Shown here in pieces: positions 3,041 to 8,840 of a stretch of DNA of 12,943 nt. A program made the translations under genes and the position numbers. Positions within the stretch are counted from its first letter, which is position 1. Each line of letters opens with the position of its first letter. Where the stretch lies: assembly GCA_038320275.1 (NCBI GenBank), contig JBBQEB010000111.1, forward strand, positions 1 to 12,943, read 5' to 3'. The DNA is from Myxococcales bacterium. GTDB taxonomy: Bacteria; Myxococcota; Myxococcia; Myxococcales; Anaeromyxobacteraceae. A model generated the notes under the pieces. It saw only the letters and a list, made by a program, of their open reading frames with translations. It was not told the origin of the DNA and did not search any database.

Positions 3041-6000
3041 ATGTCCGAAGCGCCCGACAACTTGGCGCGACTCGCCGGTCCGTGGGGAACCGAGGCGCTC
3101 CCCTCGGCCGAGCTGCTCCGCGAGACGCGCGATGTCCTCTCCGCGCTCCAGCCGGACGACCTCGCCGCGGTGGCGCCGCTGGTGGAGACGCTCGTCGGGC
3201 GCGCGCGGGAGCACGGGGCACGGGAGACCGCCCGCGAGGCCCTCCTCGCGTTCATGGACACGGTTCGCCGCCGCTTCTTCACCGAGGCCCTGCGCCCGGA
3301 CGACATCGCGGGGTGGACGCGCCTCCTCACCGGCGCCGTCGACCGGGCCGACTACACCCTGGGCGAGGTCCTGCGCTCGCGGGAGGCCACGGACCCGCGC
3401 GCGATCGCCATGCGCGTGCTCGGCGCCGACGCCTGCGAGCTCACCGTCACCGATGTCGCCCGGCGCACCCGGGCGATCGCGCGCGGCCTCCTCGCCCTGC
3501 TCCGCGACGACCCGGAGGGGAAGGTCGCCATCCTCTCCGAGAACTCGCTCGAGTCGGCCCTCTGCGACCTCGCCTGCCTGACGAACGGCATCGTCGACTT
3601 CCCGCTGCCAGCCAACGCCGTCGCCGAGCAGGTGGCTTACATGTTGCGCCACTCGCGGGCGCGCGTGCTCGTGGTGGCCGACGAGGAGCAGCTCGCCAAG
3701 GTTCTCCCCGCCCTGGGGAGCCTGCCCGACCTGCACGACATCGTGGTGATCTCCCGCGGCTGCGCCGAGCGGCACGGGATGCTCTCGTTCGAGCAGATGG
3801 TCGGTGGCGGGGCGGGGGCGTTCGACGACGTCGCGCGCATCACCCGCGCCTCGGAGGTGCGGAGCCGCGACCTCGCCACGGTCATGTACACCTCGGGCAC
3901 CACCGGGCGGCCGAAGGGCATCGCCTTCAACCAGCTCAACATCGTGTCGAAGCGGCTCTTCCGCGGCTTCGCGCTGCCCAAGGTGGGGGAAGGCGACGTC
4001 TTCCTCTGCTACCTGCCGCTCTACCACACCTTCGGGCGCTACCTCGAGATGTGCGGCACGTTGTGGTGGGGCGCGACCTACGTGTTCGCGCGCTCCACCT
4101 CGCACGGCTCGCTGCTCGAGGACTTCAAGGCGGTCCGGCCCACGGTGTTCATCAGCGTGCCCAAGAAGTGGATCGAGCTGCACGAGAGCTCGGTGCAGGA
4201 GGCCGCCTCGGACGACCTCGACGAGACCGCCGTCCAGCTGAAGGCGCTCACCGGGGGCCGGCTGCGCTACGGGCTCTCCGCAGCCGGTTACCTCGACCCG
4301 CTGGTCTTCAAGGCCTTCCATCGCGCCGGGGTCGAGCTCTGCTCCGGGTACGGCATGACCGAGGCGACCGGCGGCATCACCATGACGCCGCCCGGCGAGT
4401 ACGCCGACCAGTCGATCGGCCCCGCGCTCCCCGGGATCGAGGCGCGCCGCGCCGACGACGGCGAGCTCCTCATCCGCGGGCCGTACGTGAGCCCGGGCTA
4501 CTACCTTTCCGAAGGCGGGGAGACCGGCGCCGACGGCGAGGGCTGGTTCGCCACCGGCGACCTCGTTTCCCTGGACGCGAAGGGCCACTTCCGGATCACC
4601 GGCCGCAAGAAGGAGATCTACAAGAACCGCGCGGGACAGACCATCGCCCCGCAGCGCGTGGAGAACCTGTTCCGCGACTTCGACGCGGTCGCTCAGGCGT
4701 TCCTGGTGGGCGACCACCGCGAGTACAACACGCTGCTCATCTGGCCCAGCTACGAGCGCCAGCCCGACCTGCGCGAGCGAGCTCCCGCCCAGCTCAACGA
4801 GCTGCTCTCCTCCCTGGTGGCCTCCGCCAACCGATTCCTGGCTCCCTTCGAGCGTGTGGTGGCCTTCCAGGTGCTCCCGCGCGCGCTCGACGAGGAGCAC
4901 GGCGAGCTCACGAAGAAGCTCTCCTTCAAGCGCGAGGTGGTCGAGAAGAGCTGGTCCGAGCTCATCGAGACCATGTACGTGCAGAAGTACCTCTCGATCC
5001 AGCTCGACGCCGGCCACCTCCTGCGCATCCCGAACTGGGTGCTGCGCGAGATGGGCGTGCTGCAGCACGAGGTAGCGCTGCGCGGGGGCGTGCTGCAGGC
5101 GGGCGCGCGTTCGATGCCGGTCGGCGTCGATCCCTCCGCGCCGGGCTCCTTCCGCATCGGCGACCTCGCGTACACGGTGCAGTCCTCCGCTCTCGACCTG
5201 GGGGCGCTCCTCGCCCGCCCCGGACTCTGGCTGGGCAACGACGCGCTGGTGACCTTCCTCGGGGAGGAGGCGTTCGGGTCGCTCGTCGCCCGCCGCCGCA
5301 AGGCCGGTTCCGAGATCGGCATCGACCCGCGCATGTGGCCCACGCCATCGCCGGCGCGGGTGGAGCGGCTCCTCGAGACGTGCGACGCGCCACAGCCCAG
5401 CTTCCGGACGCTGCACGCGGCGGCAGAGCTCCTTCGGGCCGAGCGCCCCGAGGCGCGCCAGGGCGTCATGCACCTCCAGGCCACGCTCGCGAGCGGCCCC
5501 CGCGAGTACGCGTCCCTGTGCCGGTCGCTCCTGCGCCGGTCGGCCGAGGCGCGCGACGAGGAGGTGCGTCGCCGGGCCTTCCGGGCGCTCCTGCCCTTCG
5601 AGAGCCCCGAAGAGACGATGGCCACGCTCCGGCTGTTCCTCGACCGGATGGGCGCCATGTCCCTGCGCGACGAGGACCTGGCGGTCCTGGGAGAGCGCGG
5701 GCTGACCGACGCTCAGATGGAGGTCCTGCTCGGGTCGCTCTCGGCGGACTCCGCGCTGGAGTCGGTGCGCAATCCTTCCGATCGCCGGCTCCTCGTCGGG
5801 ACGATGCGGCTCCTCACCGCCCACGCCGTGAGCCACACGCGCTGGTACCCGCGCGTGCGGGTGCCGCTCGCCCGCCTCTCCCTGCACGGCGACGAGGAGC
5901 TCGCGGCGCGCGCCAGCGAGGAGGGCGACCGCCTGCGGCGAGGATTCCAGCACTGGATCGGTCCCAACCTCCGCCTCGCCATCGACCCTGCCAGCGGCGG

Positions 6001-7702: not shown

Positions 7703-8840
7703 GGCGCCGACCGCGCCTCCGCCCTGGCGCATCATCGACACGACCCTTCGCGAGGGAGAACAGTTCGCGAGGGCCTCCTTCCGCACCGAGGACAAGCTCG
7801 AGATCGCGCGCGCGCTCGACTCCTTCGGCGTGGACTACATCGAGGTCACCTCCCCGGCGGCCTCACCGCAGTCGCAGCGGGACGCGATCACCATCGCCAA
7901 GCTCGGCCTCGGCGCGCGCGTCATCACCCACTCTCGCTGCGTGGTGGACGACGTCAAGGCTGCCATCGACACGGGCGTGCGCGGCATCGGGCTGCTCTTC
8001 GGCACGAGCCGGATCCTGCGCGAGTCTTCTCACGGCAAGAGCATCGAGCAGATCATCGCCGCCATGGCGCCTCCCATCCAGCTCGCGCTGGCCGCTGGGC
8101 TGGAGGTGCGCTTCAGCGCGGAGGACACCTTTCGCACGGAGGAGGAGGATCTCCTCGCCGTGTACCGCGCCGCCGCCGAGCTGGGGGTGCACCGAGTCGG
8201 GCTCGCCGACACGGTCGGCGTGGCCACCCCGCGGCAGGTCTTCACGGCCGTACGGCAGGTGCGGCGGACGGTGGCGCGGGATGTCGGCTTCCACGGACAC
8301 AACGACACCGGCTGCGCCATCGCCAACGCGCACGAGGCGGTCTCGGCAGGCGCCACGCACGTGGACGTCTCCGTGCTCGGGATCGGCGAGCGCAACGGCA
8401 TCACGCCACTCGGCGGCTTCATCGCCCGCATGTACTCCATCGATCCGCAGGGCGTCGCCCAGCGTTACCGGCTGGGCCAGCTCCGCGAGCTGGAGCGGCT
8501 CATCGCCCGCATCTGCTCGGTGGAGATCCCGTTCAACAACTACCTCACCGGCGAGACCGCCTTCTCGCACAAGGCCGGGATGCACCTCAAGGCGATGACC
8601 GTGAATCCCGGCTCGTACGAGATCATCCCTCCCGAGGCCTTCGGTCTGGCCCGCCGGCTCATCGTCGGCAGCCGCCTCACCGGCAAGCACGCCATCGGCT
8701 ACCGCGCCCGCGAGATCGGCATCACCTTCGGCGAGTCGGAGCTCAAGGCCATCACCCAGCGCATCAAGGAGATGGCCGATTCCGGCGAGCTCAACGAGGC
8801 GCAGATCGACAAGGTGCTGAGGGAGTGGGTGACCGCGTAG
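7683..8840 (+). CDS. hcs: Homocitrate synthase, Thermus/Deinococcus/fungal (LysS/Lys20-like) type, DRE-TIM metallolyase, 385 aa
   Basis: Motifs are [100 protein letters not shown], and the C-terminus LREWVTA. It is colinear end-to-end with T. thermophilus HCS as I recall it and has no LeuA regulatory domain. ATG 7683 (SD present) is preferred over 7653. It overlaps the upstream CDS by 20 nt. Confidence 0.9.

Follow-up and report, generated by a model that had tools for sequence, protein, structure and literature searches.

A giant ligase-GNAT protein gene overlapping a Thermus-type homocitrate synthase gene in Anaeromyxobacteraceae: a candidate acylation partner of an acetyl-CoA-condensing enzyme

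The window analysed here is a whole contig of 12,943 bp (JBBQEB010000111.1, assembly GCA_038320275.1; G000:C111) from a Myxococcales bacterium of the family Anaeromyxobacteraceae, with a G+C content of about 72% and five evident genes. Two of these overlap on the forward strand, the first encoding a giant multidomain protein of 1553 amino acids (aa) and the second a homocitrate synthase (HCS) of 385 aa. The overlapping genes are predicted to form a conserved Anaeromyxobacteraceae operon in which the giant protein would acetylate, and so tune, the adjacent HCS; this reading is held tentatively, as possible but short of probable. New here, as far as can be read from the sequence, are the position of a Thermus-type HCS gene behind the giant gene and the predicted translational coupling of the two.

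The candidate open reading frames (ORFs) taken from the ORF listing, 3029..7702 (+) and 7653..8840 (+), were refined at their starts on the sequence. The giant gene starts at ATG 3041, with GAGG 6 nt upstream, and stops at TGA 7700-7702. For the HCS gene, which stops at 8838-8840, ATG 7683 is the sole start codon in frame between GTG 7653 and the conserved HCS N-terminus. An earlier note on this DNA had described a 20-nt overlap (7683-7702) with the Shine-Dalgarno sequence of the HCS gene inside the upstream gene, a gap of 113 bp upstream and a convergent gene downstream; all of these were confirmed on the sequence, the gap to the convergent stop codon being 36 nt. A promoter and terminator scan, which is uninformative at 72% G+C, found neither a sigma-70 consensus nor a + strand terminator. 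The features of the locus are as follows.

2928..3040, + strand: intergenic gap of 113 nt upstream of the giant gene, with GAGG at 3031-3034
3041..7702, + strand: giant gene, 1553 aa (ligase, beta domain, helical repeat, kinase-like fold, GNAT)
3386..4504, + strand: N-terminal ligase domain, AMP-binding (ANL), residues 116-488 (PF00501, 8.7e-63)
4634..4984, + strand: C-terminal ligase subdomain AMP-binding_C_3, residues 532-648 (PF23562, 1e-09)
4982..5326, + strand: predicted beta-rich domain, residues 648-762, with the family-conserved motif P..LWLGN (AlphaFold2 model)
5351..5959, + strand: predicted alpha-helical repeat, residues 771-973 (AlphaFold2 model)
6011..7201, + strand: predicted protein-kinase-like fold with an added helical bundle, residues 991-1387 (AlphaFold2 model, Foldseek)
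7223..7681, + strand: GNAT acetyltransferase domain, residues 1395-1547 (Pfam 1.8e-06, AlphaFold2 model, Foldseek)
7672..7678, + strand: Shine-Dalgarno sequence GGAGGAG of the HCS gene, within the giant gene, 4 nt upstream of ATG 7683
7683..7702, + strand: overlap of both coding sequences, 20 nt
7683..8840, + strand: HCS of the Thermus/fungal (LysS) type, 385 aa (domains, TIGR02146, Thermus match)
8841..8876, no strand: gap of 36 nt between the HCS gene and the convergent hybrid histidine kinase gene, whose stop codon lies at 8877-8879

The ligase domain of the giant protein is of the AMP-forming kind, and no CoA_binding, Succ_CoA_lig or ATP-grasp match was found in the protein. All ANL core motifs are intact (P-loop TSGTTGxPKG, GYGxTE, TGD and the A10 lysine), the A10-type lysine region GELTxK..KR is conserved across the giant family, and conservation within that family is highest in the ligase domain. 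All 25 listed NCBIfam models for named ligase substrate families (FadD11, long-chain, MenE, malonyl and others) stayed below their cut-offs; the best was FadD11, with 206.5 bits against a cut-off of 950. The nearest solved ligases were weak matches, namely carboxylic acid reductase (97 bits) and malonyl- and oxalyl-CoA ligases.

The middle part of about 750 residues had no Pfam match up to E = 10 and no match to solved structures by sequence, and a search of the ESM Atlas gave leads below 0.9 only. An AlphaFold2 (AF2) model of residues 648-1553, based on an alignment of 87 rows (mean pLDDT of 94.1, pTM of 0.89), shows, besides the GNAT domain, a beta-rich domain, a helical repeat and an alpha/beta domain to which a helical bundle is added. 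Foldseek against the PDB returned 32 matches at E <= 1e-3, which were of two kinds. The GNAT matches comprised YhbS, which was the best Foldseek match, GCN5 (TM of 0.63 on target, rmsd of 2.4) and the mycobacterial proteins Rv0998 and MSMEG_5458; the kinase-fold matches comprised Rio1 (TM of 0.53 on target), Rio2, RNase L, PI3K/VPS34, LRRK2 and GRK2, several of them with a helical domain in front. By inspection, neither the Gly-rich loop nor the beta-3 Lys nor the HRD Asp was conserved at >=50% in the 87 family sequences, the sole conserved feature of the kinase-like domain being an N...D pair (sP.nv.vP..Dy). As modelled, the middle part is a kinase-like fold without kinase motifs. The acetyl-CoA motif of the GNAT, R-x-x-G-x-G/A, reads RGHG and is conserved in the giant family. 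The architecture of adenylation domain, pseudokinase and GNAT proposed in the earlier note was thus recovered, with the ligase and the GNAT from Pfam and the kinase-like fold from AF2 and Foldseek.

By every available sequence test the second protein is a homocitrate synthase. It consists of an HMGL-like TIM barrel (PF00682, 6.2e-74) followed by HCS_D2 (PF22617, 2.9e-28), and it scored 451.3 bits with TIGR02146, the model of the fungal, archaeal and Thermus LysS type, against a cut-off of 413.55. In comparison, the nifV model gave 258.9 bits (cut-off 462.9), and the models for isopropylmalate synthase and citramalate synthase were also below their cut-offs. The protein aligned over its full length with the Thermus thermophilus HCS (PDB 3a9i/2ztj; 516 bits), and the Schizosaccharomyces pombe enzyme gave 434 bits. 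The residues R23, E24, H83, R143, T177, H204 and H206 are invariant in 22 HCS sequences and identical in the aligned Thermus enzyme, where, going by the Thermus structures, we take them to bind the metal and 2-oxoglutarate.

The pair is conserved throughout the family. Both genes were found in all 24 other Anaeromyxobacteraceae genomes, with HCS directly 3' of the giant gene and on the same strand in 24/24; the giant protein was in pieces in five of the 24 (contig ends or frame breaks). In a scan of species genomes, the best 80 of 228 relatives (56-79% identity) were nearly all labelled Anaeromyxobacter, Anaeromyxobacteraceae, Myxococcales or delta proteobacterium, and HCS lay directly downstream of the giant gene in 76 of these best 80 loci. 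Two of the other four end at a contig edge (L033, L109), and two are second copies (L077, L092). The latter have 3.5-6.5 kb of downstream sequence without HCS, whereas HCS is present at the respective other copy of each assembly (L058, L055); they could represent a true partnerless paralogue or a mixed bin. A further locus, L098, on a 2444-bp contig titled Chloroflexota bacterium, holds a giant 3' end (58% identity) followed by the start of HCS and is probably a mis-binned contig, not a Chloroflexota gene. The pair is also carried by cultured Anaeromyxobacter species.

From the giant stop to the HCS start, 60 of the 69 loci giving a value measured between -19 and +21 nt: 41 had short gaps and 19 overlapped, mostly by 4 nt. 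Gaps of 127, 127 and 1175 nt occurred in three others, and six of the 69 values (-700 to -1018) are artefacts of the stop-finding script. The flanks vary among genera (6-phosphogluconate-dehydrogenase-like, HAD hydrolase, ABC transporter, EamA, DUF4142 and others), and the pair alone is conserved. In the two-copy genomes G245 and G258, HCS follows each giant copy.

A survey of 301 Myxococcota genomes delimited this distribution. The giant middle region was found in 41 of them, i.e., in the genome of the window (G000), in 39/39 of the family and in one genome of a second family (G283), and in none of the 253 genomes of all other families. HCS (E <= 1e-100) was found in 42/301, i.e., in the same 41 and in G034. 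Both genes thus occur in 41/301 genomes, including G283, where they are unlinked: its full-length homologue has 1574 aa (about 49% identity in the middle region), and its HCS (74% identity) is on another contig. In G034, HCS and a 672-aa ligase-only relative are likewise unlinked. The HCS match was split or truncated, for example into residues 10-237 and 302-385 or to residues 10-319 alone, at G008:C30:18223-19353, G019:C5:852378-853307, G297:C17:437300-438100 and G245:C9:16596-17366; these could be assembly errors or decaying copies.

HCS of this type is known from lysine biosynthesis. Its context was searched in five genomes, four from the family (G000, G004, G017 and G024) and one from another family (G034). 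LysW was found in none of the five, with positive controls matched, and LysX had no match over cut-off. Neither homoaconitase (TIGR01343) nor homoisocitrate dehydrogenase (HICDH; TIGR02088) exceeded its cut-off in any of the five; paralogues of the LeuCD/LeuB type are present and might be promiscuous. G000, G004, G017 and G024 have LysA, an enzyme of the diaminopimelate route, over cut-off. The comparison of diaminopimelate and LysW pathways that the earlier note had suggested therefore yielded LysA in four family genomes and LysW in 0/5. Within the 12.9-kb window, domain and family-model searches found no homoaconitase, HICDH, lysWXZYJK or nif genes, as that note had stated for the adjacent genes, and its description of an orphan Thermus-type HCS agrees both with the TIGR02146 score and with the lack of pathway partners over cut-offs in the five genomes.

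Nitrogenase offers a further use for homocitrate, and 29 of 61 family genomes have nifH above its cut-off. The search found no nifH in G000 (90.7% complete), nor in complete genomes such as G017 and G192. Two genomes with nifH, G004 and G024, have no nifV-like gene at E <= 1e-40 besides this HCS and LeuA. Since LysW and LysX were not found and nifH occurs in about half of the genomes, the retention of HCS by every member is not accounted for by the known lysine route or by supply of the nitrogenase cofactor. G034, of the same order and another family, has an HCS of 60% identity, no LysA over cut-off and no LysW detected, and its homoaconitase- and HICDH-family scores of 338 and 380 bits are above those in Anaeromyxobacteraceae (coordinates in G034: C7:92173-93303, C3:89491-90714 and C14:177708-178679). 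This organism may make lysine via an aminoadipate-type route with an unrecognised lower half.

Beyond the Myxococcota, relatives of the giant protein are widespread. An exhaustive, profile-free search with residues 648-1553, with clusters represented at 50% identity, gave at least 412 clusters at E <= 1e-3 and 164 at E <= 1e-30, with identities down to 21%. Among the best 150 clusters, 66 were at least 1400 aa long with the same layout, the match lying at about 650-1550; one cluster of the family was named Ignavibacteriaceae. Metagenomes were scanned with a 15-row alignment led by a distant member, P0211, over 24 of 64 parts, and 80 loci ranked by likeness to P0211 were taken. These are 37-50% identical to the lead member and 31-51% to the giant protein of the window, and the sample represents one of the two superclades in the family tree, the other being P0260-P0335.

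An HCS-like gene (E <= 1e-10) was found in 0/80 of these distant loci, with flanks of up to 7 kb and at least 1200 nt of downstream sequence in 54 of them. Instead, the dominant neighbour by ORF clustering was a citrate synthase of 434-439 aa, present in 27/80 loci and, in 19, immediately preceding the giant gene in the same orientation. ATP-citrate lyase was not seen among the representatives of neighbour clusters that were annotated. By tblastn, a citrate-synthase-family match lay within 7 kb in 31/80 loci, two of these matches being weak or partial (L134, L182) and six lying 1-6 kb away; at least 1700 nt of upstream sequence was available for 58 of the 80. The neighbouring enzyme belongs to the 'eukaryotic-like' Si type, scoring 751 bits with NF007128 (cut-off 344). 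Across the giant-protein tree, three or more separate clades show the adjacency, although loci inside a clade are kin and all neighbourhood counts overstate independence. Within Anaeromyxobacteraceae, the order citrate synthase, giant gene, HCS was found in L040, L043, L045, L062, G014 and G022. In G014 the adjacent synthase is the main citrate synthase of the genome; in the window's own genome, citrate synthase is on another contig (G000:C3).

The neighbourhood test of full-length homologues proposed in the earlier note accordingly divided: the HCS pairing held in the family, in 76 of the best 80 loci, and failed in the 80 distant loci and in G283. The broader coupling to 2-oxoacid-condensing enzymes held in another form, as HCS inside the family and as citrate synthase in 31/80 distant loci outside it. 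Since the distant relatives neighbour citrate synthase and not HCS, the HCS pairing is read as a lineage-specific case of a wider acetyl-CoA-condensing tie.

CoA-ligase-type genes are a second recurrent CoA-thioester neighbour of the giant gene. Directly upstream of the G283 giant gene (L030, G283:C5), 6276-9089 (-) encodes a 937-aa protein with CoA-binding and succinyl-CoA-ligase-alpha-like domains, and a neighbour cluster spanning three distant loci, represented by L153:4203-6386, is an ADP-forming acyl-CoA synthetase (CoA_binding_2, Succ_CoA_lig, ATP-grasp_5). In seven distant loci (L114, L138, L143, L146, L148, L161 and one more) the next gene downstream is CTP synthase (pyrG), followed by TPR, formyltransferase and AICARFT genes, which looks like clade-specific synteny.

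As for the other genes of the window, the one upstream of the giant gene (3-2927, +; stop codon at 2925-2927) codes for a fusion of an Hsp70/actin-fold ATPase with DUF3731 ('DnaK-related protein', 3.1e-87); the gene either begins beyond the contig edge or starts at GTG 189. The convergent gene (8877-12212, -) encodes a hybrid histidine kinase with three receiver domains and PAS, HisKA and HATPase domains. The first approximately 370 residues of its ORF are rich in Arg, Gly and Ala and have no match at all, and the true start is probably near residue 378, which leaves 11.1-12.2 kb without an assigned gene. A CheW-receiver gene comes next (12160-12942, -). G+C is 0.69-0.75 across the giant gene and HCS (window 3001-9000) and 0.74-0.77 in the flanking genes; this mild dip might point to a foreign origin of the pair.

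Taken together, the tie of the giant protein is likely to enzymes that condense acetyl-CoA with 2-oxoacids, and not to lysine synthesis. Because citrate synthase, HCS and the GNAT all use acetyl-CoA, the giant protein is read as acting at the acetyl-CoA node. The two partners do not look like a random choice, since both condense acetyl-CoA with a 2-oxo-dicarboxylate, although their folds are unrelated. From the observed pair, its conservation, the domains and the neighbourhood statistics we infer the target, the acyl group and any binding between the proteins. In this scheme an acyl-CoA would be produced or sensed by the ligase domain, scaffolding or sensing would fall to the helical and kinase-like parts, and the GNAT would pass acetyl, or another acyl group, on to a lysine residue in the condensing enzyme encoded next door. 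The draw of acetyl-CoA into homocitrate or citrate would thereby be set.

Regulatory acylation was chosen among the possible activities because the GNAT is closest to protein acetyltransferases, because class I lysine acetyltransferases provide a precedent and because citrate synthase of E. coli is subject to acetylation. The activity of the E. coli enzyme is changed by acetylation at K295 or K283, according to work cited by the review PMC11254643. The first of three options in the earlier note, an acetyltransferase that controls HCS, is accordingly the one favoured by the citrate synthase link, which extends the putative target beyond HCS. In its boldest form, this reading describes a phylum-spanning control module between acetyl-CoA and tricarboxylates, in which a 175-kDa protein would make its own acyl-CoA and its GCN5-like domain would acylate the adjacent condensing enzyme. 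The partner would be citrate synthase in many lineages, and the Anaeromyxobacteraceae would have wired in a horizontally acquired Thermus-type HCS, giving a regulated, lysine-independent homocitrate branch. This bolder form is speculative and somewhat unlikely as a whole.

Several points weigh against acylation of the adjacent synthase. No citrate synthase was found in the flanks of 49 of the 80 distant loci, and neither synthase is adjacent in G283. For the intact, highly conserved ligase, the role of an enzyme acting on one fixed small molecule is at least as good a fit as that of a sensor. The GNAT fold also occurs in enzymes that acylate small molecules, and YhbS ranked first among the Foldseek matches. 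Gene order within one bacterial family can be inherited without function. Finally, acetylation, binding and co-transcription are predictions, and kin loci inflate the counts. A complex prediction of giant residues 947-1553 (kinase-like domain and GNAT) with HCS had a score of 0.00 and a mark of 0.32 and speaks neither for nor against the reading.

Among the alternatives, metabolic supply is unlikely, though a serious contender. Here the ligase would make an acyl-CoA for the adjacent synthase, and the GNAT of the same chain would acetylate the catalytic lysine of the ligase and so switch the ligase off. This would suit the intact, very conserved ligase motifs with their conserved A10-type lysine region, neighbours that are acetyl-CoA users, and the CoA-ligase-type genes that adjoin the giant gene in G283 and in the cluster of three distant loci (L153). 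The proposed switch would mirror the action of Pat and AcuA on acetyl-CoA synthetase (Acs). That Acs is regulated by a GNAT is established (PMC11255334, PMC11254643). On the other hand, the scores of the ligase with long-chain and FadD11-like models are far below cut-offs, and its solved relatives are weak. At the position that would align with the Trp before Q-T-E of acetate-specific Acs, the giant family has Gly (GYGMTE), which suggests an acid larger than acetate. HCS and citrate synthase of these types use acetyl-CoA.

Alternatively, HCS could be kept for reasons of its own (homocitrate for the nitrogenase cofactor, an unrecognised aminoadipate route or a second condensing activity), with the adjacency being inherited order and the two genes uncoupled. 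The presence of nifH in 29/61 family genomes, the lack of another nifV-like gene besides LeuA in G004 and G024, which have nifH, and the restriction of HCS adjacency to one family, with HCS elsewhere in G283 and G034, are consistent with this. It is nevertheless unlikely, given that HCS occurs in 39/39 and 24/24 family genomes, including the complete, nifH-less G017 and G192, that overlap or near-abutment is kept despite reshuffled flanks and that the pair appears to duplicate as a unit (G245, G258). Moreover, the partner found elsewhere does analogous chemistry, which would not be expected by chance.

Small-molecule biosynthesis, the second option of the earlier note, is possible in outline and quite improbable. 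In this case an acid, which could be the citrate or homocitrate supplied by the neighbour, would be activated by the ligase, and the GNAT would move the acyl group from CoA to an amine, giving an N-acyl product. A ligase and an acyltransferase joined in one chain do make biosynthetic sense, the two kinds of neighbour yield citrate and homocitrate, which are one CH2 apart, the nearest solved ligases include malonyl- and oxalyl-CoA ligases, and the GNAT also matches small-molecule acetyltransferases. However, the citrate synthase adjacent in G014 is the main one of that genome and not a dedicated copy, no transporter, amine-forming or tailoring genes recur beside the giant gene, and the scaffold of about 750 residues has no biosynthetic parallel.

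A LysW-independent aminoadipate pathway to lysine, with aminoadipate supposedly activated by the ligase and N-protected by the GNAT (the third option of that note), is very improbable. In its favour are the lysine-pathway type of the HCS and the failure to find LysW and LysX, as a working pathway would then require some other means of protection. Against it are LysA over cut-off in G000, G004, G017 and G024, no homoaconitase or HICDH family match over cut-off, distant giant relatives that pair with citrate synthase and with HCS in 0/80 loci, and the lack of a fused or adjacent reductase or aminotransferase.

That several little-studied bacterial groups have a conserved 1500-1600-residue protein encoded next to citrate synthase marks a gap in the description of central metabolism. 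If it modifies these synthases, the protein would be a new type of lysine acetyltransferase, combining an AMP-forming ligase, a pseudokinase and a GNAT, that controls the first step of the tricarboxylic acid cycle, and it would echo the eukaryotic pairing of acetyl-CoA synthetase and GCN5. For the Anaeromyxobacteraceae, the puzzle is that bacteria with diaminopimelate-derived lysine, about half of them with nitrogenase, all keep a Thermus-type HCS.

The earlier note had not recognised the architecture or the pairing from any characterised system, and the literature agreed: in the full text of Creative-Commons PMC papers and bioRxiv preprints, no paper was found on the giant architecture or the HCS pairing, on Anaeromyxobacter with homocitrate synthase or with aminoadipate, on acyl-CoA synthetase with GNAT and homocitrate synthase, or on pseudokinase with GNAT and AMP-forming enzymes. 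The closest known systems share parts of it. Class I lysine acetyltransferases are large GNAT proteins with a ligase-related domain, and types I and II of this class are defined by an NDP-forming acyl-CoA-ligase-like domain of 700-900 aa (PMC11254643, in its part on classification). The giant protein, of 175 kDa, likewise exceeds 80 kDa and carries a single GNAT at one end. It resembles Pat/PatZ (YfiQ) in being a large multidomain chain with one terminal GNAT and an acyl-CoA-ligase-related domain (same part of PMC11254643), and Pat/PatZ acts on enzymes of acetyl-CoA metabolism, as the giant protein would. In contrast, the ligase-like domain of Pat is NDP-forming, of the succinyl-CoA-synthetase kind, and inactive, whereas that of the giant protein is an AMP-forming ANL domain with all motifs, and its ligase and GNAT are separated by a beta, helical and kinase-like scaffold of about 750 residues.

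Mycobacterial Pat (Rv0998 / MSMEG_5458, type III) is similar in its GNAT fold (4avb, 4orf), and its substrates include AMP-forming acyl-CoA ligases. It differs in having its own sensor, a cAMP-binding domain of about 150 residues, and in having neither a ligase nor a kinase-like domain. On the side of the synthase, the Thermus thermophilus HCS (2ztj, 3a9i) is alike over its full length, and the TIGR02146 cut-off is passed. The Thermus enzyme may also accept oxaloacetate. It works with homoaconitase, HICDH and LysW/X/Z/Y/J/K; unlike in that lysine operon, LysW was not found in the probed Anaeromyxobacteraceae, LysX, homoaconitase and HICDH were below cut-offs, and LysA is present.

Orphan genes annotated as 'homocitrate synthase' have also been described as Re-citrate synthases, in anaerobes without Si-citrate synthase (Heliomicrobium HM1_2993, Clostridium kluyveri; PMC12016533, in its part on these enzymes). 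They share with the gene of the window an HCS annotation outside nif and lysine operons and a tie to the entry of acetyl-CoA into a tricarboxylate. They differ in that their hosts are without Si-citrate synthase, while Anaeromyxobacteraceae have one, and in that identity among them is about 28% (same part of PMC12016533), the HCS of the window being far closer to proven HCS. Re-citrate synthase was therefore rejected as the main reading of this HCS, with a Si-citrate synthase present and the protein very close to proven HCS. Set beside these systems, the HCS pairing is a lineage-specific extension of a widespread, undescribed module.

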